A DNA stretch of 49,179 bases from Candidatus Thorarchaeota archaeon (GTDB lineage: Archaea > Asgardarchaeota > Thorarchaeia > Thorarchaeales > Thorarchaeaceae), in the NCBI GenBank assembly GCA_046758445.1, contig JBHIAE010000022.1:1-49179 (forward strand), in the 5' to 3' direction. The notes under the pieces were generated by a model. That model had not been told where the DNA came from, did no database searches, and saw nothing but the letters and a program-made list of their open reading frames with translations. The translations under genes were made by a program, and so were the position numbers. Of this stretch, positions 3 to 30,117 are shown one piece after another (the stretch's first letter is position 1; every line of letters begins with the position of its first letter).

Positions 3-3000
3 GCTGAGGTTCAGAGTTTTGGAGACCAGTTTTCAGTATCTAATGCCTCTCAGGTACAATGGAACAGCTACTATTTCGTTGCTGTTCCAAATGGCTACGA
101 AGACTACTTCTTCTTCAATACCACGAAGCATAGCGCAAGGGTCATAGACATCGTGTCCGAGCCTCGCTATCCAAGTACCGATTTCACGTTCTGGTCGACA
201 AGCAGTGAGAGTTTGAACGTTTCAGTGTATAGTGGTGTGACGGGAACCTATCAGAACGGCTTCTGGCGAATTCAAGGACACTCGGCCAACATTGTCCAGG
301 AACTTCAGATGTGGACCGGAACGTCTTGGTCTCCCTCTTACATCTACCGAGCTAATGATAATGTACGATTTAGAGCACAGCTTGATACTTCCTTCAACGG
401 CGCCACAGTAACCTTTGTAGTCCGTGATCCAACGAGCGCCATATGGGACACACTGACAGCTCAAGTAGTGGCCGGCTACGCAGAAACATCTGACGTGAAC
501 TTGGATGCCTTCACTGCGACCGTAGGTGAATGGACAGTTCAGGCCTATGCGAATGATTCGATTTCTGGTGGCCCCGTTCAGAATGTGGGCCTATACTCAC
601 GAACATTCGCTGTTGAACACAGCACCGACATGTATGTTATCTATCCTAGGGAGTCTGTAGCTAGTTGGACTCGGAACCTCACATACGGTCAAGACATGCT
701 TCTCCAACTCCGAGTAAACGACTCTGACAACGGTGACTTACTTCCGGGTGGAGATGCAACATTCAATTGGACCACAGGTACTGAACCGCTCAACGACATG
801 GGGACTGGAGAATACAGCACTGTCCTCAATACCGCAGACCTAGGTGTTCCTGGTCGATATGCGATTGCCATCTACTGGAATCGACAGAACTATGATCCTA
901 TCTCGAAGGTCTTTGTAATCAATGTTGTTGAAGAAACGACCCTTCAGTCGCCCAGTGCTCCAGGGGTCACCGTCCCCCACGGTTGGAATGCAACTCTAGA
1001 GCTATTCTTTGCTGACTCTTCAGGGTCAGGAATCCAAGATGCGATATTGACATGCAACTGGACTGATTCTCCCTACTACATAACCCCTGAAGTCGGCGAA
1101 CCAGGGAACTACACACTGACCATAACCACCTACAATTCCGTTCTCGATACATTTGCAGTGCTAGTAAAAGCTCAGAAAGACTTCTACGTGACCTCTCAGA
1201 TTACGCTCTTTGTTGAAGTTAGACAATTGTTCACTTCTGTTTCGGTCTCACACAGCATCTTCAGTCTGCCAATTGGATATCAGGAGTCTATCACTCTGAC
1301 TTATTGGGACACTGACCATGATTTGCCGATCTTGGGCGCGGAGAGCTCTATCTGGACCAACTGGTCAGACTATCACCAGTTTGGCGATCAGAACTACACG
1401 GTTGCGATGGTTTCGCCTGGAGTCTATGAGATAGTATTCTTCTCTATAGAAACAGACACAATAGGCACAAACGCAGTACGATTTGAGGTTACTCGCTTTG
1501 GATATCAGAATCACACTTTCGAAGTCACCGTGGACGTTTCAACCCATCTAACTTCATTCAGACTTGACAACCCTGTGGAGCCGACACCGTTCACGGTCGA
1601 CATCGCTATCCAGGTCACCTACTTTGATGAATCTACGTCGACAGGAATCGTCGGACCAGACGTTCTGATTTACGCAACAACACCAGGCATCAGTCCGTTT
1701 CTCTACACTGTCACGAACGGTTCAGCTCAAGGGTCGTATGTCATAACGATTCCTGCCAACCAATGGGGCGACATTGGATGGAAGGACTTGACGCTCTATG
1801 CAAACTGGACAGGACCGCGCAGCAAGTTTGACAATCTTACTTTGGATGTCAGCGTTAGGATTTCCGGTTCGCCTGCAGACCTCTTCATTGGACAGAGTCC
1901 CGTTTCCACTCCTTACGGGGAGAACATCAATTTCACGGTCGTCTACTGGGACGTGGGCAACAGTACCGGAATAGTGAACGGTACTGGACCTTACGCATTC
2001 AACGTTACGATACGCGTAGATGTACTAACACCGGGCCAAACACTCACTCAGGCACTGATGATCATAACTGAGGTTGACTACATCAACAGACCCGGGGAAT
2101 ATCGTATCGTGTTCAACACCTCTCATCTAAGTGGGCTAATTGGATGCGAGTTGAAGATTTGGTTCAATTGGACCAGGGGTGCCATGCCTCTCTATGAGAA
2201 TAGGACTCTACTATTGACGGTCTATTCAACGTATCGTCAGACAGTTGTGGATACTACAAGTCTCCCTGTGTCTCCATTTGATGAGAAAGTGAACCTCACC
2301 ATTGCTTACAAAGATGTCCTCACTGGTGCCAACATCCAAGACAGCGGTAGTCTGTCGATAACAACGCCTGGCTATGCGTTCAATGTAATATACGATGGCG
2401 ATGCCACAGCGCTCTTCTTCATCGAGGTAGATACTCTTCTGTTCACTTCTCCAGGGACATATAGCTTTCAGGTTGTGGTTGAGTGGTCTGGGGGCCCCTT
2501 CTATCAGAATCGTACGGTCGACATTCTCATCACTGTTCGAGAGAGATACACCTCATTAACCCATGGTTCCTATGGACAAGTGCAGTATGGCAACAATCTG
2601 ACACTGGTGTTTACCTACACCGACCTAGATGATTTCACAAGTGTAGGCATGAATGGCGGAACGCTGACCGTACCAGGACTGGTTGGGTTCTATGATATCA
2701 CGGACAACGGCGACGGCACATATACATTAGAGCTAGGGACAGATGCATTCCCATCAGTAGGAACTTTCGTCGTCAATGTCTCAATTGTTTACGGAGGAAC
2801 CCGTCACTGTGCGGATGCCACAGATTTCTTCCATCTCACTGTTGTGGAGCGAAGGACCCAACTCACGAGTGATCCTCCAGACCCAGCACCCTTCCTGACC
2901 CAGGCGAATATCACAGTTCACTACATTGACGATAACACGGCCTCAGGAATTGCGGGGGCAGACGTCTACGCGACATGTGCCACTGCCACTGAGCCCCTAT

Positions 3001-6000: not shown

Positions 6001-6575
6001 TCAGAGTTTGGTCAGTTCCAAAGCTACTGAGGACCTTGAGACGAATGGTCAGTATGCTGCGCAAGGGTCAGATTCCTGCGCCCGCAGACGTGCGCGATCG
6101 GAGGGCGGTCATACTTGAGAATATGAACGAGGATTTGGCACCTGTTGGACTTTCGAAGGAGTACGAAGACGTAGCTCCTTCCACTGTCGAAGTAGAAGCA
6201 TTAGATGTTGAAAGACTACTCGAGGAGCTACGTGTGGTCATTGGACTGACAGAGGAAGACGTGACAGTTCTTCGTCACGATTTGGATCGAATGCGGCCTA
6301 GCGAGAGAGCAGGCTTCATTGGAGAGGTTCTACGTCAGGAGCGAGCTAGGAGGGCTCGGGAGCTCGCAGAGGCGGAACTGGTGGCGGAAGAACCTGAAGC
6401 GGTCGTTGAAGCCGAGAGAAGACTCACCGAGGAAGAGCTTGAACATCTCAGAGAAGAGCTGATCAAGATGGGCATAGAACCGTCTGAGGCCGACCTGATG
6501 GTAGAGCAGGCAAGGTCCCTGACCAAGGCGGAGATAGACGCTCTGCTTGATCAGATAGGAGGTTTGAAGGAATGA
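3..6575 (+). CDS. Giant single-pass surface protein, A-type paralog (A1); 5'-partial
   Basis: Frame is open from position 3 (AEVQSFGDQFSVSNASQVQWNSYYFVAVPNGYEDYFFFN..., aligning to ~residue 400 of the paralogs), so the GTG at 153 is not the true start. 17 ~100-aa Ig-like repeats (D-x-G-N/D-G-x-Y motifs), many N-x-S/T sequons, TM helix at ~5944-6010, acidic helical cytoplasmic tail ending IGGLKE. Confidence 0.9.
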   Translation, partial: AEVQSFGDQFSVSNASQVQWNSYYFVAVPNGYEDYFFFNTTKHSARVIDIVSEPRYPSTDFTFWSTSSESLNVSVYSGVTGTYQNGFWRIQGHSANIVQELQMWTGTSWSPSYIYRANDNVRFRAQLDTSFNGATVTFVVRDPTSAIWDTLTAQVVAGYAETSDVNLDAFTATVGEWTVQAYANDSISGGPVQNVGLYSRTFAVEHSTDMYVIYPRESVASWTRNLTYGQDMLLQLRVNDSDNGDLLPGGDATFNWTTGTEPLNDMGTGEYSTVLNTADLGVPGRYAIAIYWNRQNYDPISKVFVINVVEETTLQSPSAPGVTVPHGWNATLELFFADSSGSGIQDAILTCNWTDSPYYITPEVGEPGNYTLTITTYNSVLDTFAVLVKAQKDFYVTSQITLFVEVRQLFTSVSVSHSIFSLPIGYQESITLTYWDTDHDLPILGAESSIWTNWSDYHQFGDQNYTVAMVSPGVYEIVFFSIETDTIGTNAVRFEVTRFGYQNHTFEVTVDVSTHLTSFRLDNPVEPTPFTVDIAIQVTYFDESTSTGIVGPDVLIYATTPGISPFLYTVTNGSAQGSYVITIPANQWGDIGWKDLTLYANWTGPRSKFDNLTLDVSVRISGSPADLFIGQSPVSTPYGENINFTVVYWDVGNSTGIVNGTGPYAFNVTIRVDVLTPGQTLTQALMIITEVDYINRPGEYRIVFNTSHLSGLIGCELKIWFNWTRGAMPLYENRTLLLTVYSTYRQTVVDTTSLPVSPFDEKVNLTIAYKDVLTGANIQDSGSLSITTPGYAFNVIYDGDATALFFIEVDTLLFTSPGTYSFQVVVEWSGGPFYQNRTVDILITVRERYTSLTHGSYGQVQYGNNLTLVFTYTDLDDFTSVGMNGGTLTVPGLVGFYDITDNGDGTYTLELGTDAFPSVGTFVVNVSIVYGGTRHCADATDFFHLTVVERRTQLTSDPPDPAPFLTQANITVHYIDDNTASGIAGADVYATCATATEPLLLNTNYWVDDLGGGSYQIRMSTVALGNFGSYTIEVTANWTGTPFYMERARSVDIEVSRRPVGFTVSRSPLNTPFLENVTFEITISDSRDGTPITVDKSTLILSHNGGIAILNSEYSISGSNGVYLISINSTVLTPVLVTGHPIEVKFFWGDMVPYYANATTATQVNIGPRFTQGRVLSTPAAFYSFNLSAVIEYSDYLTGRPIPSASVTFLCLNDSSFWSDIIPLGDGSYKILVDTNDLSGIGRYYFMANFTWTGPPYYDNVYGLEFSVVVNPVSTSLNFVLLPGVTYYLGDIVVGNITFTDILEGRGIDGAIITSDWNSTYAPSIALITPLGNGIYRMSINTSGLDAQVYPFTVSAFKLLHLNRSITADVFLAAIPVEIELVFTPTNPEWGEPVELSANVTDARNGNPVLPTIADPEPVNLTISGTTYVMVHQGGGIYNITIPTAGFVAGEYTLRVRCALLNHESRQKDFQMRIYKVASKISASLDPQVAVNGQTVTVEADYLILSNNSPIGIGVVTYSWIGGFGNLTWVPAQQKYVASFMVSNAAVGNHQILIQATSSVYKSVSTPITIEITEITTSLTAYQGITVLSAVSGDTVNVTVYMNNTALGLPVTGASVAYSIPGAAGDLTEIGGGYYSADVSTGTLQVGEWILGVSGAAPGFTPSSTQFTITILKIPTIVEILGEALIGEYYGRNVTFLLRFHDIHNDVGISGATATYVLELTGGTLQEMGNGTYSLTVNTTWVSAGMHSHDISVTFQKNLYDYAYGTVKLVSMPIPTEVIGAVEADVPVGDDYTHVFQFNDTLHNELLDNATAIAFWDFAPVSLTPLGGGAYRFGPTEANLSSRLDVRTTPYRIRIQFSKANYSVEEITFMLTIREIRTELRVEPLPSAIYVQEVFYVQVTFWDLDHDVAIPGAFNSTTGLDNLPEFAEDYGDGTYLFAFLPPAVSSYELVITLSMMDYQDASEVLFIQAEFTPEAQTLMRSFMWGGILLILIAGLASAYVRVWSVPKLLRTLRRMVSMLRKGQIPAPADVRDRRAVILENMNEDLAPVGLSKEYEDVAPSTVEVEALDVERLLEELRVVIGLTEEDVTVLRHDLDRMRPSERAGFIGEVLRQERARRARELAEAELVAEEPEAVVEAERRLTEEELEHLREELIKMGIEPSEADLMVEQARSLTKAEIDALLDQIGGLKE

Positions 6576-12500: not shown

Positions 12501-14305
12501 CCAGTGGCGCAACAGCACTCTTTGTTGTACAAGGTGATGTCCTCAGCATACTCGTTGAGTACAATGATACCTACTATGGTGGCTTCATCTCCGGTGCCAA
12601 TGTGACTTACACAATAGGGGCCTTGGCCGGAACTTTGACGGAGGAGGCCAATGCCACCTATAGCGCGGTGATTGACACAAGTGATCTACCTGCTCAGACC
12701 ATCTTCCTTCGTATCACTGGAGCGAAGACTGACTATGCGACCACAACAAAGACTCTGATAGTCACAATTCAACCAGTACCCACCGAAGTAACAGTTGATA
12801 CGTTGCTGAATGAGGGATATCATGATGACGTCGTTGACTTCACTTTCTACTATAATGACACTCATCGTAATGCACCTATTGTCGGGGCCTTTGCAACTGT
12901 TTCATGGGACGGTGGTGCCGGCGACGTCACGGACCTTGGCAATGGATCTTACTTGGTAGAGATCACATTGACTCCAACTTCACCACGCCTCTATGACATC
13001 AATGTGGCATTTACTCTGCAGAACTTCACCACAGCCTCAACTATAGTGAGAGTTGTCATTCTGGCAACTCCTGCAATGATCGTTGGACCCAGTGACTACA
13101 GCGTCCCTGTCAATCACACCGCTCAGGTCATCTTCAATGTGGAGAACACTCTTACGAACGAAACCATCCCAGGACTCAATGGTATAGCGTACTGGGATGT
13201 GGCAGGTGCAGTGCCTCTCACTGTGCTTGAGAATGGAAGTTATGCAATCGAGATTCCCGATGATCTGCCCATGGCTACATACAGAATCGAGATAGGATTC
13301 ACAACATCAGTATACAGCATGACGACAAAGTTCCTTGACCTAACAGTTAGACCAGTAAGAACGAGGCTTTTGACTGCAAACACTACAATCTCGACTTCAC
13401 CTGGGAGTGGAATCACAATCGTCATTACCTATCTTGACGTTGACCACGGGACAGGCATCTCTGGCGTCATTCCCACTGTCACCTACTTTGAAGAGAACAT
13501 AACATACTTCGAAGATAGACTCGTTGAGTCAAGTCCAGGTGTTTATGAGTTGCCATTCCTGGTGACTGCCGGAAGAACGTTCACAATAACTGTCACCTTT
13601 GCCAAGGACCAACACGAAACAAAGAGCATCGTCTTCACAATCAACTCCGACATCTCGGCGGAACAGATTCTTGTTCAGAACTTGGCCCTTGGTGGAGGCT
13701 TCATCTTCATCATCCTTTCAATTGCTATTGTGGCCTATGTCAGGGTATTCAGCATTCCTAAGATGGTTAGAATCATTAACAAGATGATCGCTGCCTTGGC
13801 TGGCGGCAAGATTCCGAAACCGGCTGACGTACCGAATAGAGAAGCCATGGTGTTGGAGATTGTCAATGAGGGAATTCAGCCGGCTGGGATAACAAAGACT
13901 CCGGGCGACCTTCCAGGTCCGAGTATAGAGGCCATAGTCCCAGAGATAGAGGACTTGCTGGAACATCTTGCCGCGATCACCGGTCTGAGAGAGGCAGAAA
14001 TCGAGGCATTCCGTCAGGATCTTTCGAGAATGAAGGCGAGCGAGAGACCTGGTTTCATTAGAGAAGTAATCGAGCAGGAGGAGGCTCGTCGAGCGGAGGC
14101 CCTTGAAGAAGATGAGGAAGCAAGAAGACCCGAAGAGGCGAAGGAGGTACTCGAACAGAAGCCGGAGGAGCTTGAGGAGCTAAGAGTCAAGCTGCGGAGG
14201 AAGGGCATGTCCAATGACGAGATCGACATCACAATCGAACAGGCCAAGGGACTCTCCAAAGCAGACCTCGAGGCCCTCTTAGACAGTCTTGGTATCAGGC
14301 TGTAG
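6572..14305 (+). CDS. Giant single-pass surface protein, B-type paralog (B1), 2577 aa
   Basis: Signal peptide MKVRTRMLVVTLMALLMLVSA; jelly-roll-like head; 17 Ig-like repeats; TM (LALGGGFIFIILSIAIVAYV); tail ending GLSKADLEALLDSLGIRL; ATGA overlap with A1 and AGGAGG at 6557-6562. Confidence 0.92.
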   Translation: MKVRTRMLVVTLMALLMLVSANVMSSPWTSEFGGINEFASLDPDTSQNKEDARMPQSPIFSLSEQGLTEWSGQSTELPTMAYGNRIDMFEDNQNRYFPSNGSTSDTSVFVPMGAGWEGQELFVEVYELTENRTWFVDPEMEVGGAPWSLGTVSVGGGAAPEANWLPDGHGSGNDCVEFRMTSPDGDPSTGERAYARQNVAVDRGDVVWAGFRLDYWIDSAWGADGFVAVYVSIETNDYTQRVWQRSFADVTQAQTWFDSGLVVLQDLSIFDLSDGLDIEVGLYSQQSVNYWPDLDPEARVDNVELYIMTLTDPSDVNLQVNGLDVNDFVVGASTIPGLGNRTHVPATEWTSNPLQVNFTWTPSPSTPDPDREIRVDFSVRTTLYARGAGATVTTQDPAAFGESFTASNASEIEYLTWFHADIPEGYDEEYYFNISLPENRDVYFVGSPLLTSENITDWDEGHGPGWYANISAFEHLDRWGYWLVRSHGSNMITNILMVNSTTGRTSEFLGLRAHDTTRFVVEVGAQFAGIEVNLTVYDPSGTEWYSEAAIVNGTGYAETRELTFGVNATAGQWLVQALCNNSMAGSAWNKTGFFSRSFEVTHASFSELLNPADAVVTWTTNVTRPDLFLVRIRINDSDIPSIAVSGGQMSYNWTTGTEYFSDSGTGQYTVTLDSGDLAQKGEYTINIDWVHPYFDAISDVLTVYLNLDAEIVLEVPDSPGLSIPSGYNESFRVRFEDDIGNPIDYGIVDCNWSSYYSVKPVTGSPGSYIFWLNTTFVGLGEYVIAVTGEASFILPQTYLVYVEVRELYTRIWYLQNVLEIPLGEASDFTVDWIDADHELPLIGLNNSIEVNWTGSYSVDEISPGTYNITMFTEDADTLGTYPVKVTLSGSLMQNQSFVIQVIVRPHNTFFTLDEPVGDTPYGEEVVILVFHLDTDFSTGTSNATGDLSISVTTPGIVGLQYVVSDSTLGVGHFNITIQSGQWSTVGWKNLTIQISWTGPSEKYQTKTIQTTVRLVGTQTDLYLEVAPVATYYLDNFTFSAIFWDVVNSTPISNTTGNVLVSITPIGPQNPVSFNDFLISIIQEGPTSVFYRFELNSTHLEGVGSFNVEILFQWRSGRQPFYENRTLAVALLVLERPTYVDYGPVSSTPYGEEATYVFSYVDSLSTMKIRNSSSLLVSLNEGGVSWSLAYDSALRTFTLVIDTTSLGAAGQYNLHLNLTWVGEPFYQQIPSHTFSIIVTVRSTQLAHLSFAPEQYGNNVSIEFIFTDLVAQSTSGMTGLLSLNITKGWYTVSYLGNGHFVAVVNTSAPDFGSDGVFSINASIVPSAPNFANAHEVFSFAVLKRSTQLRYESPDPTPYLDHVTFGIAYNDDSTGRGVTGAQIALDCTNSSQSLVLNSNYWLTELGSGQYLIEVNSTALGAIGTYFLNVTVSYTGAPYYQPASRNVNSRVSERDTQTLITQTPGETPFLENITLRFRYEDYLTKAMIPIDKSHVTLTHGVTQDLIPSGSYTLYDFGTFFEIRFNSTILNPTTLVTGHEIQLEIDRGAGVPYYAVSGATTVAATIERPTQILFPLVEEVPYFSNITIELDYIDFLSSQGIEGASIDIVSNNWTIALYQVEEVGGGSYRVYINTTLFGGVGTANLDITATKGGVPFYSTRMTTGVPASIRPIITTLQADPPSPGSTAVGVPIVVILTLVDFDHGVPLEGATLTSDWTTLYSTSHQIVEVGNGVYNLTLDMTGLTAQDYPFTVQAQKLYYQTTTVDVSVTPGASTFTIVLAKTAVFATWGEIPDIRLDVRESYYFSLVPGANVTLLWNGTIFQFDDLGNGTYTLDLDTTASSFGIYSPQISVSKQYYQTRQTSFTLVVSKAPGHILSLDPDTGEVRTFRNIVLNTATDIIVYLNDTIRGDPVVATSVTMEWNNTVYVLVANGTPGFYTANLDVTGFDIGPYELVMSAASLNHVFLDAVVDINVDPISTDIGLASGATALFVVQGDVLSILVEYNDTYYGGFISGANVTYTIGALAGTLTEEANATYSAVIDTSDLPAQTIFLRITGAKTDYATTTKTLIVTIQPVPTEVTVDTLLNEGYHDDVVDFTFYYNDTHRNAPIVGAFATVSWDGGAGDVTDLGNGSYLVEITLTPTSPRLYDINVAFTLQNFTTASTIVRVVILATPAMIVGPSDYSVPVNHTAQVIFNVENTLTNETIPGLNGIAYWDVAGAVPLTVLENGSYAIEIPDDLPMATYRIEIGFTTSVYSMTTKFLDLTVRPVRTRLLTANTTISTSPGSGITIVITYLDVDHGTGISGVIPTVTYFEENITYFEDRLVESSPGVYELPFLVTAGRTFTITVTFAKDQHETKSIVFTINSDISAEQILVQNLALGGGFIFIILSIAIVAYVRVFSIPKMVRIINKMIAALAGGKIPKPADVPNREAMVLEIVNEGIQPAGITKTPGDLPGPSIEAIVPEIEDLLEHLAAITGLREAEIEAFRQDLSRMKASERPGFIREVIEQEEARRAEALEEDEEARRPEEAKEVLEQKPEELEELRVKLRRKGMSNDEIDITIEQAKGLSKADLEALLDSLGIRL

Positions 14306-14316
14306 GACCGAGTAGG

Positions 14317-14623: not shown

Positions 14624-14629
14624 CGCCTC

Positions 14630-17600
14630 GTGAGATCGAAGAAAGCTCTCATGCTGCTCCTGATTCTAATGCCACTGGTCTCTGGTGCTTTTCTATCCCA
14701 TTCGACAACGCATGATCTTAGTCCTCAGGTAAGACTTGCCGATGTCGGTGACGGTGAGGTAATTGAGTTGGGCCCTGACGAAACCCTGCACAAGTTTACT
14801 CTGTCTGACATGCCAACAGTGAGAGAAGGTACAGGTGCGCCACTGAATGGTTCAGAATACGGGTCACGCACTGACATGTTCCCATCTGAATCCATAATGT
14901 ACAATTCAACTAGTAGATCTACAAACCACGTGAATCTGACAGTGCCAATAGCGAAACACTGGGAGGCCTACGAGGTCTTTGCCAACGTTACTAGTCTCAC
15001 TGAGAATCGAACATGGCTTCTCAATCCCAGTTTTGACAATTCCGGAAACTGGACATATGGTACTCACAACGAGATGCCTGGAGTGAACGCAATCACCTCT
15101 GAATGGGACTCGAATGGACACGGTGCGGGTGATGGTTCAACGAGGCACCAAATCTTCGGTGACCCGTCGCGAACATACGACTTAGGCGACAAGGGGTACG
15201 CTACACAGAACATCTCATTGTCACTTGGTGAGATAGTATGGGTTGGTGTGAGTCTTGATTACTACGCCAGATTTCCGCCCTTGCCCGGAACACTGACTGG
15301 TTACTTCGAGTTGTTCGTATCATTAGGAGACCCAGATAAGGACCCAGACGATGATGGCGAACGGGATCCTGACTATTTCTGGTCAATTCAGTTCAATGAG
15401 ATCCAACAGGACTCTGTATGGTACTCAACTGGAATCGTGGAAGTAGACACTTCAATCACCGATTTCCAGAACGCCGAAATATGGGCTGGTCTCCGTTCAG
15501 TCGACGATGTTCGGTATGGTAGAAATAGGGATCCAGAAGGACGCCTTGACAACATTGAGATCTACATCAAGTCCAAGGCGACCCCGGGCCAACTGAATCT
15601 GAAGACAAATGATAAAGATGTAGAGGGCACGACTCCTGGACAAGGTCAGCTGAGATTTCCAGTGGGAATCAATGAGATGAAGGGGACTGCATACGCGGAC
15701 TTCTCATGGACGCCAATACCTGCGACTCCAGATCCCAATCGAGACATCACTGTCGACTTGGATGTTACACTTACTGCATACGCTTGGAGCTACAATGACT
15801 TTACGAAGAATAACACGGCTTCATTGACAAACGGGTCGTTATACTCCGTGTGGAACGCCACAGATGTAGATTGGGAAACCAATTTCCTAGCCATTGTCCC
15901 TGAGGGGTATGAGAATGAGTATTTCTTTAGTCTGTCAATCCCTGATAACAGGGATGTGTATACGGTGGCTGAACCGGACTTCCGGCACGTCAATCTGACA
16001 AGTGGGTGGACTTTGGGAGATCCTCTCGATGGTGCTGTCAACGTTTCTGTGTATGATATCACAACTACCAGTCAGAATGGCTTCTGGCTTGTAAAAGGCA
16101 CGTCACCAAACATGATTACGAATCTCCAAGTATGGAACGACGATACAAGCCAATGGTTGGGTACCGAGAAGTTCGGCGCAAACAATAACACCCGTTTTAG
16201 GGCCACGTTGAGTTCCTCCTACGCCGGAAACACCGTATACTTCACGGTCTATGACCCTGACGGAGCCGTATGGATTGAGCAACAAGCAGTAGTCGATTCT
16301 TCCGGGTACGCCACTACGAGTATGGTAAACCTCGATGCCTACAACGCTTCAGTGGGTGCATGGGAAGTACAGGCCTTTGTGGATGACTCAGTTTCAGGTG
16401 GAGGCTCAATTAACAACCTCGGATACTACCGAAGAGGCTTCAGTATCGGGCATGGCACCAGTATGTCAGTCAAGTATCCGGTGGGCTCAGACGTTTCTTG
16501 GAATGTCACAGTCGTTCACGGCACGTGGGTGCTGCTTCAACTTAGAGTCAATGACACCGATAACGGAGATTTCCTGCCGGGTGGAACAATGACCTATTCA
16601 TGGGCAGCTGGTTCCGGTGCTGTCAGCGATCTAGGTACAGGCGAATACAGTGTAACGCTCGATACGGGTCTCCTCGCTAGCAACGGTGAGTATGACGTAA
16701 CACTCCAGTGGAACAAGGGATACTACGACCCGCTGGTTCGCACTTTCAAGATTGTTGCGATCCTTAACACAGATCTCTTCTCCAGTGATGCTCCCGGAAT
16801 TGACGTCCCTAGTGGATACATAGCCCAGTTGAGTTTCAGCTTTCGAGATCAGTATTCGCAAGGTATCGCAGATGCTGAACTGACGACTAACTGGTCTTAC
16901 CCGTATACGGTTACACAGGTAATGGGACAACCAGGGGACTACACCGTTGAATTGAACACAACTGGGGCCCCTCTAGAAACATTCCTTGTCAGTTTCACAG
17001 CGAGCAAGGACTACTATGAAACTCGTACGGTAATCCTGTCCATCCAAGTCCGGGAATTGCACACCTCGGCAATCCCGTCCACGAGTCTCCTATCATTGCC
17101 AGTCGGCTATATCAAATCATTGAGAATTACTTATACTGATTCAGACTCTGGAAGTCCAATCAGCGGAGCTGCTTGGGCTATCAGGTGCAACTGGTCCGAC
17201 ATTCACTCCTTCGGTGACCAGAACTACACAGTTGTCGAAACCGGGACACCGGGAGAGTATGAGGTGACCATATACTCTGAGGATACCGATGTACTTGGTA
17301 CGTACAGCGTGGTGTTCAATGTCGAAATGCCTGGTGCTCAGAATCACACCTTCATCGCTACACTGGTTTTGAAGACGCATCTCACTTCATTCTCTTTGGT
17401 GAACCCCATAGATCCCACCCCATACACTGGAAATGTCCGCATTCTCGTCTACTACTACGACGCGGATGCCGATGCCGGCATAGAGAACGGGACGTCTGTC
17501 GGCTACTTTGTTGATATTGAAGTTAGGAGCTCCACCTTGCCATTGGTCAATTTCGCTTGGGCAAATGGAACGGTGCATGGGGAGTACATCCTCCTACTAT

Positions 17601-20600
17601 CTGCCGCCCAGTGGGGTTCAATCGGTGACAAGGACTTGACGATTTTGTGTAACTGGACCGGACCAACTGTCAAGTTCTACAACAGGACAATCAGTACCAG
17701 TGCGAGAATCACAGGTGCTCAAACGCAGTTATTCATGGGAGATAGCCCAGTGATGACTCCGTATGGAGAGAACGTTTCATTCTCAGTCGTATATTGGGAC
17801 GTTGGTGGAGGAGTGGGTGTCGTGAACAGCACTGGACCCTATGCAGGCAATGTCCATCTCTATGTCGATGTTCTGACGTCAGGTCAGTTGCTGACTCAGA
17901 GCCTAATGATGATAACAGAGGTGAACGCCATCATCAATCCAGGGGAGTACAGGATTGAGTTCAACACCACCTATCTTAGCGGGCTCATCAGTTGTGATCT
18001 GAGAATCTGGCTCAATTGGACGAAGGCTGCTTTGCCCTACTATAAGAACCAGACACTCCTTCTGACAGTCTACGCCACATATCGTCAGACGACTGTAGGC
18101 TGGACGCCGATGCCAGTCACTCCTTACGACGAATTTGTGAACCTGACTCTTACGTATCAAGATGCACTTTCTACGGAGAATATACGTGACAGTCCAAGCC
18201 TCTTGATATCTACACCTGGTTATGCATTCAGCTTGTTCTATGAAGGGGACGCTACCGCCGTTTTCAAGATACAAGTGAGCACTTCCGCATTTGGAAGTCC
18301 CGGCACACACACATTCCAGGTCGACATCATTTGGTCTGGCAGCCCCTTCTACCAGAACAAGACAGGCATGGTCATTCCAATCACAGTTAGAGAACGTCAC
18401 ACTCAATTCACACACGGTTCATACGCGCCAGTCCAATACAGCAACAATCTCACTATCATATTCACATACCTTGATCTTGATGACTTCCCATATACAGGCG
18501 TAAGTGGAGGAACAATTACGCTTGACTCCAGCCTGGGAGGTTTCTATTCCGTCTGGGACAATTCGGATGGAACGTATACACTGAAGCTCAACACTTCCGC
18601 ATATCTGTCACTCGGTACGTTCCAAGTGAACGCTACTATGACATATGGCGGTGTAAGATTCTGTGCCGACGCTACTGACACGTTCTATCTTACAGTCGCA
18701 AGAAGAATCACTCAGCTTACTGGAGATCTACCCCAGCCGGCACCTTTCCTGACCTTAGCAAATCTCACTGTACACTATATCGATGACTCGACCAGTCGGG
18801 GAATCATGAATGCAGATGTATCGCTCTTCAGTGCGACAGCAAGCCAACCACTGGTTCAGGGAGTGACTTTCTGGGTGGTCAATCTTGCCGATGGAGTGTA
18901 TGAGATTGGTGTCGACACAGGTGCTTTGGATGGCTTTGGGTCACACATAATCGACGCTACATTGAGTTGGAGCGGGCCTCCCTTCTACCAGCAGCGAACA
19001 ATTAGTATTACCGTCGAAGTCACTCGCAGGTCCGTTTCATTTGGCGTATCCAAGTCTCCTGTAACTACGCCTTTCAAGGAGCTGGTGGTCTTCGAGATAT
19101 CCATAACAGATTCTCTCACCGGAGCTCCAGTTCTACTCAACAAGTCGGTTCTGCTAGTCACCCATGGAAGTGGAACGGAGGTCCCGCCATCGCAGTATAC
19201 TCTTGCAGGTTATGGCGAGTTCTATACAATATCTATCAATTCAACAGTTCTGACAAGTGTACTTGTAGCAGATCATCCGATTCAGGTCAAGTTCTATTGG
19301 GGCGATTGGTCGCCGTTCTATGCAAACGCAACAACATCAACACTGGTAACGATTGGACCTAGATTCACTCAAGCGACTGTGCTTTCCACTCCCCCGGCAT
19401 CGTATTCATTCAACTTGACAGCCTTAGTCAAGTATAGTGACTATCTATCAGGGTCACCCATCACAAACGCAGCTGTGTCAATTCTATGCGTAAACGACAC
19501 AACATTTGCAAGATGGATCATCGACAACGGTGACGGAACCTACTCAATCATTGTGGACACTAATGACCTATCCGGCATTGGTAGGTACTTCTTTGAAGCG
19601 AACCTTACGTGGCTAGGGTCGCCGTTCTATCGTGACGTCATTGGCGTGGAGTTCAGTGTGGTGGTGACTCCGGTGGCAACAGTTCTGAATTTCGCCTTGC
19701 CTTCAGGAGTAGTATACTATCTGGGCGACATAGTATACGGAAACATCACCTATTTTGACGTGACCACCGGCCTAGGCATTGATGGTGCAGAGGTTGCTAC
19801 TAATTGGACCATCCGACATGGAACCGAGAGTACAATTACGCCAATGGGTAATGGCATCTACCAACTTGTCATTAACACCTCCACTCTCGATGCTAAGATC
19901 TACACATTCTCTGTCAATGCATCCAAGTTCCAGCACTTCAACAGGTCAATTACCACTGACATCCTGCTTGCCGCAATTCCAGTCGAGATTGAACTTCAGT
20001 TTGCACCTACAGACCCAACTTGGGGTGACGTGCTGGAATTGAGTGCCAATGTCACAGATGCAAGAACCGGTCAGCCAATCCTGGGAGCCGCTGTGAACCT
20101 AACCATAGCCTCAATCGCATATGACATGGTCCACCAGGGAGGAGGCATATACAATGCCACTGTCCCAACAGGTTCGTTTGACAGTGGGGAATACTCTATC
20201 TTGATCACATCCGTGCTCCTCAATCACGAAACCAGGCAGAAGACCTTCCAGATACGCATCCAGAAGGTGGCTGCCAATATCATTGCAAGCATAGACCCAC
20301 TGGTCAGTGTGAATGGTCAGTCAATCACGATTGAAGTTGACTATTTCATTCTCTCAAACTCTACACCAATCTCGGTCGGAGTAGTCACGTATTCATGGAT
20401 TGGAGGGTCGGGAACTCTCTCATGGCAACCTGCCCAGTTGAATTACACTGGTCAATTCATTGTCGATAATGCGCCAGTAGGAAACCATCAGATTCTGGTT
20501 CAGGCGTCTTCAAGCAACTTCAAGACAGTGAGTGTTGTGCTCACAATAGAGGTCAGGGAAACAAATACGGGGATGCGAGCCTATCAGGACAATACTGTGC

Positions 20601-22408
20601 TGTCAGGGGTCTTCGGTGACCTGGTGAATGTGACAGTCTACTTGAACGACACAGACGTCGGCCGGCCTGTCACAGGTGCAACTCTGACCTATGGAGTGGG
20701 TACTATTGTTGGAAGCCTTACAGACCATGGAAACGGGTACTACAGCGTTGGCGTTCCAACAGGCTTGCTTGAGATTGGTGTGTCGACTCTTACCGTGGCC
20801 AGTGTCAAAGATGGCTTCACTCCATCCTCACTGCAGTTCACGCTCACCGTGGAGAAGGTACCAACTAATGTCGTGATACTGTCAAATGCTGTCCTAGAGA
20901 AGTACTATGGAGAGAATGCAACCTTCCTACTGATGTACAGAGATTCTCACAATAGTGTTGGCATTCCTGGCGCGACCTCAGGATTCATTCTTGAGAGTGT
21001 CACGGGCTCCCTTGTCGATCTGGGGAATGGCAACTATGAACTGATAGTCAACACAACTGCGGTTGTGGCCGGTGTGGTCGCCCATGACATCTCGGTAAGT
21101 TTCGTGAAGGATGGATACACATTCACATCAGGACTTGTGAAACTTGTCGTGCGTCCTATACCGACAGAAGTCCTTGGACCGAGATTGTTCTCAGTTCCTG
21201 TCGGCGATGACTATAGTCAATCGTTCCAGTTCTATGATTCACTAAATGGCGAGCTGCTTGATGGAGCCACGGCTACAGCTATTTGGGAATTCGGCTCCGA
21301 TTCGCTCACCCCGACCGGAAACGGGACATACGTCTTTGGGCCGGCTGTGACAGGAATCCCAAGACTAGAGATTCGTGAAGAACCTTACATCCTGAAGATC
21401 CAGATGACAAAGGGCAACTACAGTTTTGGCAACGTGGAAATCAGAATGACCATTAGGGAAATTGCCACCGAGATCGTTTTCGACACCTTCCCGAGTCTTG
21501 TCGTGACAGGAGTAGACTTCGAAATCAGGCTCAGGTTCATGGATGTGGACCACCAAGTCCCCATCTTTGATGCAATCAACGTAACAGATCATTCTCGACT
21601 CACACGCTTGGTGGATCAGGAATATGTGCTCGAAGATGGCACATACGTGTTTGTCTTCAGATCGCTAATACCTGGATACACCCCTCTCGTGATCAGTTTC
21701 TCGAAGATAGACTACCAAACTGCAACCTACACCTTCGATGTATACTCGCGACTTTCTCCAGAGGCACAGGCGATGGCGAACACCGTCATGGGAGCTGGGT
21801 TGCTGCTCATCTTCATCGTCGGTGCTGCTGGCCTTTACGTGAGAGTCCTATCAGTCCCCAAGCTGCTTCGGATCCTGAGGAGGATGGTATCCAATCTTGC
21901 AAGGGGAGTGATCCCCGATCCTGCTGCAGTCAGGAGCAGAAGAGAGATGATTCTTGAGGACATGAACACCGATCTCAAGTCGGTTGAACTGTCTAAGACT
22001 CTGGATGACATTGCAATGGACACTCTTGAAGTTGGTGCACTAGATGTGCAGAATCTTGTTGATGAGCTAGCCCAGGTCATAGGCCTCACTGAGGCGGACA
22101 TCGCAGTGATGATGTCTGATCTGGAGAGGATGCGGCCCAGCGAGCGTGCAGGATTCATAACTGAGGTACTGAAACAAGAGCGTGCGCGAAGAGCCAAGGA
22201 GCTGGCAGAAGCAGAGATTGCCGAAGAAGAGGTCGCTGTACCTGAAGAGGCCAAGCTCTCAGAAGAGGAGCTTGCCGACCTGAAGGAGCGTCTGCTGAAA
22301 CTTGGCATCGAAGAGTCCGAAGCAGACATCATGGTCGAACAGGCCAGAAGCCTCACTCGTGCTGAGATTCGGGCACTGCTAGAAGAGATAGGAGGCTTGG
22401 AAGAATGA
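14630..22408 (+). CDS. Giant single-pass surface protein, A-type paralog (A2), 2592 aa
   Basis: Signal peptide MRSKKALMLLLILMPLVSG; collinear with A1 (e.g. AAIPVEIEL, MVHQGGGIYN, VGNHQIL, DTNDLSGIGRY); 17 Ig-like repeats; TM at ~21785-21840; tail ending IGGLEE. Confidence 0.92.
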   Translation: MRSKKALMLLLILMPLVSGAFLSHSTTHDLSPQVRLADVGDGEVIELGPDETLHKFTLSDMPTVREGTGAPLNGSEYGSRTDMFPSESIMYNSTSRSTNHVNLTVPIAKHWEAYEVFANVTSLTENRTWLLNPSFDNSGNWTYGTHNEMPGVNAITSEWDSNGHGAGDGSTRHQIFGDPSRTYDLGDKGYATQNISLSLGEIVWVGVSLDYYARFPPLPGTLTGYFELFVSLGDPDKDPDDDGERDPDYFWSIQFNEIQQDSVWYSTGIVEVDTSITDFQNAEIWAGLRSVDDVRYGRNRDPEGRLDNIEIYIKSKATPGQLNLKTNDKDVEGTTPGQGQLRFPVGINEMKGTAYADFSWTPIPATPDPNRDITVDLDVTLTAYAWSYNDFTKNNTASLTNGSLYSVWNATDVDWETNFLAIVPEGYENEYFFSLSIPDNRDVYTVAEPDFRHVNLTSGWTLGDPLDGAVNVSVYDITTTSQNGFWLVKGTSPNMITNLQVWNDDTSQWLGTEKFGANNNTRFRATLSSSYAGNTVYFTVYDPDGAVWIEQQAVVDSSGYATTSMVNLDAYNASVGAWEVQAFVDDSVSGGGSINNLGYYRRGFSIGHGTSMSVKYPVGSDVSWNVTVVHGTWVLLQLRVNDTDNGDFLPGGTMTYSWAAGSGAVSDLGTGEYSVTLDTGLLASNGEYDVTLQWNKGYYDPLVRTFKIVAILNTDLFSSDAPGIDVPSGYIAQLSFSFRDQYSQGIADAELTTNWSYPYTVTQVMGQPGDYTVELNTTGAPLETFLVSFTASKDYYETRTVILSIQVRELHTSAIPSTSLLSLPVGYIKSLRITYTDSDSGSPISGAAWAIRCNWSDIHSFGDQNYTVVETGTPGEYEVTIYSEDTDVLGTYSVVFNVEMPGAQNHTFIATLVLKTHLTSFSLVNPIDPTPYTGNVRILVYYYDADADAGIENGTSVGYFVDIEVRSSTLPLVNFAWANGTVHGEYILLLSAAQWGSIGDKDLTILCNWTGPTVKFYNRTISTSARITGAQTQLFMGDSPVMTPYGENVSFSVVYWDVGGGVGVVNSTGPYAGNVHLYVDVLTSGQLLTQSLMMITEVNAIINPGEYRIEFNTTYLSGLISCDLRIWLNWTKAALPYYKNQTLLLTVYATYRQTTVGWTPMPVTPYDEFVNLTLTYQDALSTENIRDSPSLLISTPGYAFSLFYEGDATAVFKIQVSTSAFGSPGTHTFQVDIIWSGSPFYQNKTGMVIPITVRERHTQFTHGSYAPVQYSNNLTIIFTYLDLDDFPYTGVSGGTITLDSSLGGFYSVWDNSDGTYTLKLNTSAYLSLGTFQVNATMTYGGVRFCADATDTFYLTVARRITQLTGDLPQPAPFLTLANLTVHYIDDSTSRGIMNADVSLFSATASQPLVQGVTFWVVNLADGVYEIGVDTGALDGFGSHIIDATLSWSGPPFYQQRTISITVEVTRRSVSFGVSKSPVTTPFKELVVFEISITDSLTGAPVLLNKSVLLVTHGSGTEVPPSQYTLAGYGEFYTISINSTVLTSVLVADHPIQVKFYWGDWSPFYANATTSTLVTIGPRFTQATVLSTPPASYSFNLTALVKYSDYLSGSPITNAAVSILCVNDTTFARWIIDNGDGTYSIIVDTNDLSGIGRYFFEANLTWLGSPFYRDVIGVEFSVVVTPVATVLNFALPSGVVYYLGDIVYGNITYFDVTTGLGIDGAEVATNWTIRHGTESTITPMGNGIYQLVINTSTLDAKIYTFSVNASKFQHFNRSITTDILLAAIPVEIELQFAPTDPTWGDVLELSANVTDARTGQPILGAAVNLTIASIAYDMVHQGGGIYNATVPTGSFDSGEYSILITSVLLNHETRQKTFQIRIQKVAANIIASIDPLVSVNGQSITIEVDYFILSNSTPISVGVVTYSWIGGSGTLSWQPAQLNYTGQFIVDNAPVGNHQILVQASSSNFKTVSVVLTIEVRETNTGMRAYQDNTVLSGVFGDLVNVTVYLNDTDVGRPVTGATLTYGVGTIVGSLTDHGNGYYSVGVPTGLLEIGVSTLTVASVKDGFTPSSLQFTLTVEKVPTNVVILSNAVLEKYYGENATFLLMYRDSHNSVGIPGATSGFILESVTGSLVDLGNGNYELIVNTTAVVAGVVAHDISVSFVKDGYTFTSGLVKLVVRPIPTEVLGPRLFSVPVGDDYSQSFQFYDSLNGELLDGATATAIWEFGSDSLTPTGNGTYVFGPAVTGIPRLEIREEPYILKIQMTKGNYSFGNVEIRMTIREIATEIVFDTFPSLVVTGVDFEIRLRFMDVDHQVPIFDAINVTDHSRLTRLVDQEYVLEDGTYVFVFRSLIPGYTPLVISFSKIDYQTATYTFDVYSRLSPEAQAMANTVMGAGLLLIFIVGAAGLYVRVLSVPKLLRILRRMVSNLARGVIPDPAAVRSRREMILEDMNTDLKSVELSKTLDDIAMDTLEVGALDVQNLVDELAQVIGLTEADIAVMMSDLERMRPSERAGFITEVLKQERARRAKELAEAEIAEEEVAVPEEAKLSEEELADLKERLLKLGIEESEADIMVEQARSLTRAEIRALLEEIGGLEE

Positions 22409-28400: not shown

Positions 28401-30117
28401 CGGTGGTTTCATTGCGGGCGCCACCATCAACTATACAGTTGGTAGTTTCACAGAAACACTCACTGAGGAAGCGAACGGGACCTACTGGGCCTTAATAGAC
28501 GTAAGTAGTCTAGGGGCACAAGCTATCCAGCTCAGGATCGTCGGGACAAAGGCCGGCTATTCAACTGCCAGCAGGACCGTTGTGCTCAACATTCTTGCCA
28601 TCCCAACAGAAGTGACTGTGAACACTCCCCTCAGGGACGGTTATCACGGAGACACTGTTCAGTTCACTTTCCACTACAACGATACCCACAACAACCTGCC
28701 ACTTCCAAGTGCAACTGTGGACGTTCTGTGGGAAGGAGCCAATGCAAATGTGACCGACCTTGGCAACGGCTACTACTTCGTCGAGACTGCGCTCACACCG
28801 ATTTCTCCGATACTCTACGATGTGGATGTGAGATTCAGCCTTCATGACCATGCGACCTTCACCTTGACAGTCAGTATTGTGATCATTCCAACGCCAGCAC
28901 AGATCATCGCTCCTGCTTCTGTTTCGGTCCCCGTGAACGATACGTCTGAGGTGTACATCAACGTCAAGAATCTCCTGACGAATGAAACTGTCACTGGATT
29001 GCCAGGTTCTGCATACTGGGACGTCTACGGCGAACAGGCTCTTGGGATACGCGCGAATGGAAGCTACATCCTGACGATACCTGACATCTATCCAATGCAG
29101 ACCTACAGGATTGATCTTGCCTTCTCAACCTCAATCTATGATCTGAGTCCAGTCCAGATAGAGGTCACAATTCGTGCTATTCGTACAGAACTCAGGATCG
29201 ACAACACAACCATCGAAACAGCGCCGGGAGCGGTCCACACTGTCAATGTTGTCTATTATGATCTTGATCATGATGAATTCGTCAGTGGTGCCGAGATCAA
29301 CGTCATGGAGTCTGATGATTTCGTGTATGAGGGGTACACACAGGAAGGGAATACCTACGTAATCACCATCAGGATTGTTGCAGAAAGAAGCTTCAATGTC
29401 ACAATCACATTCTCGAAGGAGAACTACGAATCAGAGATCTTGACTCTCGATGTGAAGTCAGACATCACACCCGGTCAGCAGCTTGCTGTGGCCTTGCAGT
29501 ACGCAGGCGGCTTCCTCATGGTTCTTTTCGCGATGCTGATTGTTGGCTATCTAAGGATTTGGAGCATACCTAAACTGGTTCGTCAAATGAATAGAATGAT
29601 TCGAGACCTCAGTCGTGGAAAGATCCCGAAGCCACCAACCGTGCCAGACAGACACTCAATGGTAGTTTCAATCATCGATGAAGAGTTTGTAGGGACAACT
29701 GTGAGGAAGGTCCCAGAGGAGATTGCGGTAGTGAGCATAGAGGCCATCGTTCCTGACGTGGAGGAGCTGCTTGCACACCTGGCTGCGATCACTGGTTTGG
29801 GCGACAAAGAGCTTGAGGCCTTCCGTCAAGATCTTGCCAGAATGAGAGCAAGTGAGAGACCAGGCTTCATTAGAGAGGTGATTGAGCAGGAGGAGGCTCG
29901 TCGAGCCGAAACACTAGCCGAAGATGAGGAAGCGAAGCGTCCCGAAGAGGCGAAGGAAATCCTCGAGCAGAAGCCTGAGGAGCTTGAAGAACTAAGAGTC
30001 AAGCTACGAAGAAAGGGAATGTCAGAGGACGAGGTCGACATCATAATCGAACAGGCCAAGGGACTCTCCAAAGCGGACCTCGAGGCCCTCCTAGACAGTC
30101 TTGGTATCAGGTTGTAG
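22405..30117 (+). CDS. Giant single-pass surface protein, B-type paralog (B2), 2570 aa
   Basis: Signal peptide; collinear with B1 (RPTYVDY, ITQTPG, LVPGANVT, YNDTYYGGFI); 17 Ig-like repeats; TM at ~29490-29550; same last 24 residues as B1 (IEQAKGLSKADLEALLDSLGIRL region); ATGA overlap with A2 and AGGAGG at 22390-22395. Confidence 0.92.
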   Translation: MKQPWKSIMPLFVMAIFILQLASFDGAAIPSTSLQNELVDLGGGRSIEVSPEETLHRFALTDQGLIEWNGISDGLVGQEHGSRDDSFGPISLDYTPLVGTENTSMSVPFGADWEAYELEARVSDITENRTWITNGEFDSSANWTVGTVGAGSGNSTVSTYWESDGHDGDPCMYFEIDSTTSFGGFWRYDQDDRGYARQTMELPRGEVVWAGISFDYQSGTYSGSWTWALSMALYVVIESSNPSDWDWRLVQTDMSVEGAWNSTGLMTIPVSNFNTPTDQNVTVEVGFWSMTSEGFSPDPNPYARVDNFEIYIKTRAKPSDINLQMNGLDVVDDITWGIGTVTQEPVVPWQTSPVSLDFTWWPTPLSPAPSVPIAIELSIDTRLFARRIDIVTAYELSPTSYGQRFTVTNGSTVEYTTYFFANIPSGYLDHYFFNMSLPSDRDVYHVGPPLDLLNNLTTDWIGGNPGDGYLNVSVYQVDPELGKQGAWWIKSAAPNMISDIDLYDYANSQWAQSIDFRAGNSSRIRVYTDPSFEGATVNVTLYDPTGSSWLNLTATVDSLGQATTQRFTLGSNATAGTWVAQAIVSDSDVGGIWYSTGFFKRAFTITHESELILDHPLDAVGSWLTNVTHGDLMLIILRANDTDSDVLVPGGVLTLDWALGTDTFDDNGNGEYTKAIDTSLLPTKGQYVMNLTWTKDSFDTSNATLLVNVNYPSILSSPDYPGITGPIGYDQTIMATYSNTNGTGIDGAAMVCNWSNPYTVTPMGGGDYEFLLDTSGIGPGQYPVMLNASAPFVNPQTLVLYVQVREVYNSISYSANELSIPVGETESFLLTWTNTDTDERILDGESYISCNWTSFHRLGESNYTVSHLGNGVYNITIYTESDDPLTTGNEFYTATFNVMRKDFRNHTFDVKVRVRSHNTLFVLDEPVENTEYGTDIIVLVFYQDADMLEGIVNDTGEVRFAITSPDIGSVKFSVQNSLLGAGHYNTSIPSQQWGSIGWKNFTIQVTWQGVVTKYYSRNIQTRVRITGTETNLFLEVAPTATYYLDLVTFTTTYANINGTKISNTTGHVLLAITPLTSGHPVTQAYFIVAESGTDPGSYKFQLDTSGFQSIGVFDFQLDFMWTSGQSPFYENQSMTVSLVVLSRPTYVDYVPVPATPFYETADFTFSYVDLLSTAKIPSSPQLEISLNEPGVSYSVSYDSGSFTMAIDTDSLAGIGTFVLNLNLTWTGEPFYESISSFPFMVEVIQRTTQLTHDPFEFPQWGNNATIVFNYTDLVAHSTIGMSGTLVLNITVGYYAVQYLGSGQYLVVLNTSAPSFGSDGTFILNATIQHTDPYFADASRFFGFTILKRSTQFGYENPDPTPYLDNVTSVVSYIDDSTGRGISDASVSVTNNVSALILDTNYWVTYLGNGQYRIEVDSVALSAPGVYVLNVTSTYSGAPFYLPQSRNVNARITERTTQIIITQTPGDVPYLENITIGFRFEDFLTGNPVGIDKGDITLTHDVSMTPITSGQYNLYDFGTYYEIVFNSTILSPSSLVNGHQIHLDIGTGPVPPYYGFRSITTFASTTERQTQIFFPLVEDTPYFENLTMELDFVDFLTGNGIEGATLTLSTFNWSVPEYQVIELGAGKYRVLVISTVFGSTGTVYFNVTLSRPGIPFFAERTTANVPATIRLVQTAMVSETPAPGSTGVGVPINVTLTLKDFDHDVPLAGATITTDWFTRYGTSFSIMEVGNGVYMITLNMTGLIAQDYPFTVQADKTFYAPANITVVVTPGAASFEILIHKSTYYALWGELIDVRVDVREDYYHSLVPGANVTMLWNNTVYNFSDLDNGTYSLLLYTSDANFGVHEPQITVSRRYYSDRQTSFTMVVSKAPAQIVSELAVVQVVVDTTTNFTVYLNDTVSNAPVIGASVFMELNNTVYLLFYNGTPGYYEGTIDATGFDFGPYEITLSAASVNHDFLDTVLEISVVPIPTDIGLVGGLTSLSVILGDSLLVRANYNDTYYGGFIAGATINYTVGSFTETLTEEANGTYWALIDVSSLGAQAIQLRIVGTKAGYSTASRTVVLNILAIPTEVTVNTPLRDGYHGDTVQFTFHYNDTHNNLPLPSATVDVLWEGANANVTDLGNGYYFVETALTPISPILYDVDVRFSLHDHATFTLTVSIVIIPTPAQIIAPASVSVPVNDTSEVYINVKNLLTNETVTGLPGSAYWDVYGEQALGIRANGSYILTIPDIYPMQTYRIDLAFSTSIYDLSPVQIEVTIRAIRTELRIDNTTIETAPGAVHTVNVVYYDLDHDEFVSGAEINVMESDDFVYEGYTQEGNTYVITIRIVAERSFNVTITFSKENYESEILTLDVKSDITPGQQLAVALQYAGGFLMVLFAMLIVGYLRIWSIPKLVRQMNRMIRDLSRGKIPKPPTVPDRHSMVVSIIDEEFVGTTVRKVPEEIAVVSIEAIVPDVEELLAHLAAITGLGDKELEAFRQDLARMRASERPGFIREVIEQEEARRAETLAEDEEAKRPEEAKEILEQKPEELEELRVKLRRKGMSEDEVDIIIEQAKGLSKADLEALLDSLGIRL

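Follow-up and report, generated by a model that had tools for sequence, protein, structure and literature searches.

Giant surface proteins of Thorarchaeota encoded as a coupled A-B pair that is inherited and duplicated as one unit

We analysed the first 49,179 nucleotides (the window) of contig JBHIAE010000022.1 (C22; assembly GCA_046758445.1) of a Candidatus Thorarchaeota archaeon, a metagenome-assembled genome (MAG) of 3.25 Mb and 93% completeness. The window opens with two tandem copies of a cassette consisting of a promoter, a gene A and a gene B, each gene encoding a giant surface protein with a single membrane anchor. This cassette is specific to Thorarchaeota and is marked by stop/start coupling, a shared domain order, and inheritance and duplication of the pair as a unit. 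We read A and B as a paired adhesin or coat, a reading that we hold as a whole at about even confidence; within it, true physical heterodimerisation of A with B is a tentative proposal.

Four long intact open reading frames (ORFs) of about 2,580 amino acids (aa) each, ordered A1-B1-A2-B2, fill bases 3-30117 of the plus strand. An earlier note on this DNA, made from the letters alone, had described four paralogs of ~2,600 aa in two alternating classes, and the ORFs bear this out. By full-length BLASTP, A1 and A2 are 53.5% identical, B1 and B2 48.4%, and every A is 31-32% identical to every B, all alignments being colinear. The note had also held A1 and A2, and B1 and B2, to be mutually closest; this stands inside the window, but A1 is nearer to the A protein of other species (68%) than to A2. 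Full A1 measures 2579 aa, and its first ~390 aa, including the signal peptide, are encoded on the minus strand of contig C74. The reverse complement of C74 ends in the same 55 bp that open C22, an overlap unique among all contig ends. Because C74 supplies the missing N-terminus through this overlap, A1 is not a broken gene and is cut only by the contig end.

Within both pairs the stop codon of A overlaps the start codon of B as ATGA, at 6572-6575 and 22405-22408, and the A and B proteins end differently, in IGGL(K/E)E and LLDSLGIRL, respectively; reading the four translations and junctions gave both features as the note had described them. The A-specific ending is encoded by ATA-GGA-GG, which places GGAGG 9 nt before the B start in both window pairs and in relatives, so the distinct ending of A doubles as the ribosome-binding site of B. 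Among the first eleven relatives the junction is ATGA in seven, the remainder having GTGA, TAATG or a gap of 4-5 nt. A stop/start overlap with an upstream ribosome site usually leads to coupled, near-equimolar synthesis.

The two pairs are divided by a 324-bp gap with its own TATA-like box, TTATTAAAAG, and a GGAGGT site, in agreement with the note's reading of a separate TATA/Shine-Dalgarno region. Alignment shows the promoter regions of pair 1 and pair 2 to be homologous. Only two exact copies of a 14-mer pattern, ACGGAAYGAGGTTC, exist in the 3.25-Mb genome, one ~120 nt before A1 (C74 1345-1358, minus strand) and one at about the same distance before A2, each followed by a TATA-like box; about 0.05 occurrences would be expected by chance in 6.5 Mb (both strands). 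We regard the pattern as a candidate site for a shared regulator. This form is not conserved in other genomes, and the regions upstream of A in the genus share a TCG-N-AAAA-NN-CG box together with a TATA-like box.

The A-B arrangement extends across the family. The first eleven relatives each carry exactly one A-then-B pair of abutting ORFs, and the same arrangement was found in the Candidatus Thorarchaeota MAGs SMTZ1-45 and AB_25. Of 86 genomes of the family searched with the A2 head, 59 gave matches. In 34 genomes besides the source, two head-bearing giant ORFs lie on the same contig and strand, 7.6-7.9 kb apart; in seven genomes the head-bearing giant ORFs sit on separate short contigs, and the search revealed no other arrangement and no informative genome with one class alone. 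The pair is present in 20 of the 23 high-quality genomes of the family. Conserved adjacency, which the note had put forward as a check, is what these genomes show: A stands before B in tandem in the 34 other genomes, and singletons or random order were not seen save in one assembly, CP070658.1. Relatives picked up by scanning for the tail pattern are likewise Candidatus Thorarchaeota, including SMTZ1-45, AB_25 and OWC MAGs, in agreement with the note's assignment of the system to Asgard archaea. Across genera most A proteins measure 2568-2649 aa and most B proteins 2558-2636 aa, at only 45-50% identity; several A genes reach ~2,880-2,915 aa owing to an N-terminal extension.

Two assemblies depart from the usual picture. 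In the single-contig genome CP070658.1 (G004), the sole exception, truncated pieces of A and B lie 0.86 Mb apart (at ~0.81 Mb and 1.67 Mb) in fragmented ORFs: behind the C-terminal third of A comes a B-like head that is joined to other sequence, and the rest of B is 0.86 Mb off. This split looks like either a rearrangement through the giant genes or a misassembly. A second genome (G093, 99% complete) has two closely related A genes on different contigs (C144 and C75), which could reflect a recent extra copy or strain heterogeneity in the MAG.

Phylogenetic analysis resolved A and B as two clades, each with a support of 100. One genome comes from a second family; its upstream gene is basal to A and its downstream gene basal to B, and the A/B split is therefore older than the family. 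The note had expected separate A and B clades predating the duplication of the pair, and the tree places their divergence even deeper than that. Same-genus genomes with a single pair carry the orthologues of A1 and B1, at 68% and 62% identity, respectively; A2 has an orthologue (93%) in only one further genome of the genus, G007, and there too it is followed by a B-type head. A recent local duplication of the pair was considered and rejected, the approximately unbiased (AU) test excluding both an A1+A2 clade (p 3e-40) and a B1+B2 clade (p 7e-8).

In IQ-TREE trees of A and B rooted on the second-family genome, A2 falls as sister to A1 together with the A1 orthologues of three genera (support 97) and B2 as sister to B1 together with the B1 orthologues (support 99); the same genomes form the next outgroup in each tree. 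Because A2 and B2 take the same node in mirrored trees, we infer that the whole cassette was duplicated once before those genera split. Another possibility is that pair 2 was acquired, as a cassette of that age, from an unsampled relative. The earlier proposal that the A+B pair is the duplicated unit is upheld by this shared placement of pair 2 and by the homologous promoter regions, and two old cassettes standing in tandem show that evolution treats the pair as one unit.

Different parts of the proteins diverge at different rates. Within a class, tails are 66-73% identical and stalks 51-54%, the latter compared with 30-31% across classes; heads have the lowest identity, 39% between A1 and A2 versus 33-36% between A and B. 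Fast heads on slow, class-specific stalks of fixed length would fit a binding tip carried on a structural rod. The class-specific conservation of the stalk would also be compatible with class-specific lateral contacts, without proving them.

A hydropathy scan gave each of the four proteins a hydrophobic N-terminal signal, one transmembrane helix near residue 2370-2410 and a K/R-rich stretch after it. Each ectodomain carries 59-66 N-x-S/T sequons, compared with ~23 expected from composition, and the tails carry zero. An outside ectodomain and an inside tail are supported because the sequon enrichment precedes the membrane helix and is absent from the tails. Sequon enrichment in archaeal surface proteins goes with N-glycosylation, and the ectodomains are predicted to be heavily N-glycosylated. 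The order given in the earlier note (signal peptide, head, stalk, one transmembrane helix and cytoplasmic tail) survives this analysis, and the tail is conserved; its description of the tail as large and the repeats as Ig was overstated. The tails measure 182-187 aa and consist of small helical modules.

The stalk spans approximately residues 650-2360 and comprises 17 repeats of ~100 aa, which an iterated hidden Markov model (HMM) located at matching positions in all four proteins. These repeats are 10-30% identical to one another, and a few further beta domains, common to A and B, lie between them and the head. Matches of the repeats to Pfam beta-sandwich families (including MG2, Invasin_D3, InlK_D3 and CarboxypepD_reg) were sub-threshold and scattered in per-repeat scans; they hint that an Ig-like fold of the 17 repeats is plausible. 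Searched against PDB sequences, the repeat profile had a sole match to an MS2 coat protein fusion (E 1e-5), which we took as chance, and phmmer of A2 against the PDB returned none.

The head is the candidate binding element. An AlphaFold model of A2 residues 45-440, built from an alignment of 24 A and B heads, is confident and all beta (pLDDT, a per-residue confidence, 80; pTM, a predicted fold-level score, 0.72). Foldseek comparison of its first domain with the PDB returned the carbohydrate-binding module (CBM) folds CBM61, CBM11, CBM27, CBM16 and CBM4 with a probability of 1.0, E-values of 5e-5 to 5e-4 and target TM scores of 0.5-0.59, at a sequence identity of 10-16%; the head is larger, at ~270 aa. 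ESM Atlas searches of the head gave weak leads at scores of 0.80-0.82. The resemblance to CBMs is one of fold only, because no Pfam CBM family matched any of the four proteins, even at E 0.1.

The cytoplasmic tails are conserved and helical. All four align at a juxtamembrane Y-x-R-x-x-S-x-P-K motif, a G-x-x-P-x-P turn, a D-x-x-x-M-x-x-S-E core and a terminal three-helix module. The all-helical model of the tail (pLDDT 74, pTM 0.29) runs from the membrane helix into a basic juxtamembrane helix, a short helix, a three-helix module built round an invariant D-x-x-x-M-x-x-S-E...F-x-x-E-V-x-x-Q-E core, an acidic linker and a final three-helix module. The tail matched nothing in Pfam or NCBIfam, its modelled fold found nothing below E 0.6 in the PDB by Foldseek, and the best Z among 48,161 chains compared by VIA-align was 7.0, in the range common for helical models. 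Judged from sequence and predicted structure, the tail is a new domain family, common to many giant surface proteins.

A profile built from six tails of the source genome recovered 163 cluster representatives among 1.84 billion proteins. Full-length matches place the tail at the C-terminal end of large proteins of up to ~5,500 aa, and many other matches are short fragments. Some tail-bearing proteins carry the terminal module four times; the "small" four-copy proteins that we considered as free-standing candidates proved to be fragments of giant tails at contig starts, and no free-standing small protein with the terminal three-helix module, a candidate partner, was found in the source genome. 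Of 24 genomes sampled from the family, 23 have the tail. Beyond the family, it was matched in one genome of a second family in the order and, weakly, in one additional family; 12 other families of the phylum gave no match with this query. In the source genome, at least six giants bear it: the four in the window, a 1915-aa protein on C83 (4-5751), directly followed by a second giant ORF (5830-9735), and a fragment of a tail that opens C48.

Other tail-bearing giants, of 3,000-6,500 aa, also stand in abutting tandems (G005:C8, G015:C19, G011:C75, G020:C3, G018:C36 and C83 of the source genome). One of these (G005:C8) apparently holds two alternating pairs, of 5505 then 3991 aa and of 6560 then 3996 aa, and pairing may be a general habit of the tail-bearing giant superfamily. 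Among the matches examined, only P0132, a 245-aa protein of the undecaprenyl-diphosphate-synthase family from the representative library, has the module joined to an enzyme domain; it carries two terminal three-helix modules at its C-terminus, and the enzyme makes a lipid carrier used in glycosylation.

If A and B act as a paired adhesin or coat, they would be made 1:1 and stand on the cell as glycosylated rods, most likely as neighbours in a matched pair. A beta-sandwich domain extends for roughly 4 nm, and at ~4 nm for each beta domain the rods would measure ~80 nm. Their tips would bind glycans on substrates or partner cells, and the tail would dock all these surface giants on a common cytoplasmic or membrane-proximal partner.

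Several points weigh against this reading. Congruent A and B trees show linkage rather than contact, because adjacent genes are inherited together regardless of binding. The best-conserved part of the proteins, the tail, says little about A/B pairing because it ends many other giants, and its function is more probably one that they all share. Glycan binding would follow from fold similarity as its sole basis, with no binding residues identified in the head. The deep branches of the trees are short and FastTree placed B2 differently, making the exact node of the duplication less certain. Complex prediction for the A and B tails with their membrane helices scored 0.01, without controls, and counts neither for nor against binding.

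A rather unlikely alternative, which draws on some of the same observations, is that A and B are paralogous adhesins acting independently, each with its own ligand preference, and are co-regulated from one operon without forming a complex. Two cassettes would then widen the repertoire; the heads are the fastest-evolving part, at 33-39% identity whether within or between classes, as diversifying ligand specificity would predict; other tail-bearing giants commonly form tandem arrays in the family; and linkage alone would explain the congruent trees. Independent adhesins, however, usually vary in copy number and repeat number, whereas A and B have kept equal repeat counts and lengths over deep divergence. 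A strict A-then-B order with stop/start overlap that already existed before the family split, and the failure of the family-wide head search to find an informative one-class genome, also speak for a paired adhesin or coat over separate adhesins.

A mainly structural pair, with A and B building an outer coat, spacer or glycocalyx of fixed height in a cell without a crystalline surface layer (S-layer) and ligand binding secondary, strikes us as improbable, although it overlaps the paired reading rather than excluding it. A coat would fit lengths and repeat numbers that vary unusually little between genera, the very strong sequon enrichment and the near-universal presence of the pair among the high-quality family genomes (20/23). 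Cultured Lokiarchaeia, moreover, have complex surface proteins without assigned identity and no S-layer (PMC9834061; PMC12993045). Against a purely structural role, no S-layer family was matched in the Pfam and NCBIfam scans, and the lectin-like head at the distal tip suggests binding.

The most elaborate version of pairing, an obligate heterodimeric adhesion receptor with lectin-like heads on partner-cell glycans, tails joined to the Asgard cytoskeleton or membrane remodelling, and cassette types setting partner specificity, we consider more doubtful still. Least probable of all, and very unlikely, is a signalling receptor in which an outside ligand alters the tails and a signal is relayed to a cytoplasmic effector: the conserved folded tail, with invariant motifs beside the membrane and in two helical modules, and a type I topology like that of eukaryotic receptors would suit it, but the Pfam and NCBIfam scans revealed no kinase, HAMP, methyl-accepting or other signalling domain, no conserved signalling gene adjoins the pair, a ~2,300-residue stalk is a poor transmitter, and the same tail ends many unrelated giant ectodomains.

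The nearest functional analogues of the paired A and B proteins would be the bacterial fibrillar adhesins. Proteins such as SiiE, LapA, Bap and MpAFP are long and carry a distal binding domain on many tandem repeats of beta-sandwich type, with lectin- or CBM-like tips being common. A and B share with them a stalk of tandem repeats (17 x ~100 aa). Their tip, CBM-like in fold as modelled for A2 and matching no sequence family, would be a candidate ligand-binding domain. A and B differ in having a Sec-type signal, with no LPXTG, type I secretion signal or retention module in Pfam and NCBIfam scans; in being anchored by a membrane helix and a conserved folded cytoplasmic tail of 185 aa; and in having repeats that are old, diverged (10-30% identity) and fixed in number. 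Furthermore, A and B are always two paralogues in a translationally coupled pair, belong to an archaeal host and are predicted to be heavily N-glycosylated.

Integrin alpha and beta are likewise distinct type I membrane glycoproteins in which a large ectodomain is joined through one helix to a cytoplasmic tail; this likeness, in line with the note's comparison with eukaryotic heterodimeric receptors, is an architectural analogy only. No FG-GAP propeller, VWA/beta-I, PSI or EGF domain was found in A or B (Pfam, E 0.1), and the modelled head has a jelly-roll fold. Unlike alpha and beta, A and B are mutual paralogues, and their tails are longer, helical and without NPxY-type motifs. Among archaea, SlaA and SlaB of Sulfolobales are glycosylated envelope proteins that are encoded by adjacent genes and act together, SlaB alone being anchored by a C-terminal helix; the two are unrelated in sequence and neither has a sizeable cytoplasmic domain. 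A and B, in contrast, are paralogous, both anchored and both equipped with a tail. Archaeal S-layer glycoproteins resemble them in having a signal peptide and, as predicted for A and B, a heavily N-glycosylated ectodomain; the membrane helix of A and B leads into a helical tail of 182-187 aa rather than a short anchor, and no PGF-CTERM match was found in NCBIfam or Pfam. Within the library searched, the literature gave no description of this A/B pair or of the tail family.

Coordinates of the features are collected in Table 1. Downstream of B2 lie housekeeping genes on the opposite strand, and no conserved candidate gene for a cytoplasmic partner was seen adjoining the A-B pair. Directly upstream of A1, C74 encodes a 409-aa polytopic membrane protein (1675-2904, minus strand) that has no Pfam match and whose many hydrophobic helices may recall GT-C-type glycosyl or mannosyl transferases. 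In seven relatives (L014:17444-19651 (-), L024:668-2902 (+), L012, L015, L016, L018 and L020), A is immediately preceded, in the same orientation, by a conserved gene for a protein of ~740 aa; the search of the source genome turned up no copy. The protein, unmatched in Pfam, combines a signal peptide and a C-terminal membrane helix with an exact metzincin-type H-E-x-x-H-x-x-G-x-x-H motif, and might be a surface protease acting on the pair. Further along the window are a 377-aa ORF without a Pfam match (36648-37781, minus strand) and a 604-aa protein (38928-40742, minus strand) with a sub-threshold PIN_12 match alone, a 71%-identical homologue of which lies directly upstream of an A gene in another genome (G022).

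Table 1 Features of the two A-B cassettes, in window coordinates
Feature	Position	Strand	Basis or remark
A1, class A of pair 1 (C-terminal 2190 aa in the window)	3..6575	+	5'-open; orthologue of same-genus A genes, 68% identity
A1 transmembrane helix	5946..6002	+	Hydropathy scan
A1 cytoplasmic tail, ~187-190 aa, helical, net acidic, no sequons	6003..6572	+	Alignment, model
GGAGG within A1 codons for I-G-G, ribosome-binding site for coupled B1 translation	6558..6562	+	9 nt before B1 ATG
B1, class B of pair 1, 2577 aa	6572..14305	+	Start overlaps A1 stop (ATGA)
B1 transmembrane helix and cytoplasmic tail	13667..14302	+	Hydropathy, tail alignment
324-bp spacer with pair 2's own promoter region	14306..14629	+	Sequence reading
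ACGGAATGAGGTTC box	14498..14511	+	Pattern ACGGAAYGAGGTTC; aligned promoter regions
TATA-like box TTATTAAAAG	14523..14532	+	~100 nt before A2 start; putative function, from sequence
GGAGGT Shine-Dalgarno-like site	14618..14623	+	6 nt before A2 GTG start
A2, class A of pair 2, 2592 aa, GTG start	14630..22408	+	93% orthologue in G007
A2 head, beta jelly roll, CBM-like fold, aa 45-320	14762..15589	+	AlphaFold and Foldseek
A2 stalk, 17 tandem beta-rich repeats of ~100 aa, aa 665-2374	16622..21751	+	Iterated HMM and alignment
A2 transmembrane helix	21782..21859	+	Hydropathy scan
A2 cytoplasmic tail, ~182 aa (aa 2411-2592)	21860..22405	+	Alignment, model
GGAGG within A2 codons for I-G-G	22391..22395	+	9 nt before B2 ATG
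B2, class B of pair 2, 2570 aa	22405..30117	+	Start overlaps A2 stop (ATGA)
B2 transmembrane helix and cytoplasmic tail	29482..30114	+	Hydropathy, tail alignment

For the complex surface proteins of cultured Lokiarchaeia, a role has been proposed in the cell-cell contacts that bear on how eukaryotes arose (PMC9834061). The A-B cassette, near-universal in its family, provides concrete candidates for such surface molecules in Thorarchaeota. A type I membrane glycoprotein with a lectin-like tip and a conserved folded cytoplasmic domain, as predicted here, would be a rare architecture in prokaryotes, and the tail could serve as bait for what the Asgard surface connects to inside the cell. What this window adds is two diverged cassettes side by side, and hence evidence that the pair is the unit of evolution, which makes the heterodimer question worth a direct test. 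If the heterodimeric receptor proved true, prokaryotes would have evolved independently a counterpart of the integrin-type linkage that joins a cell's exterior to its interior.

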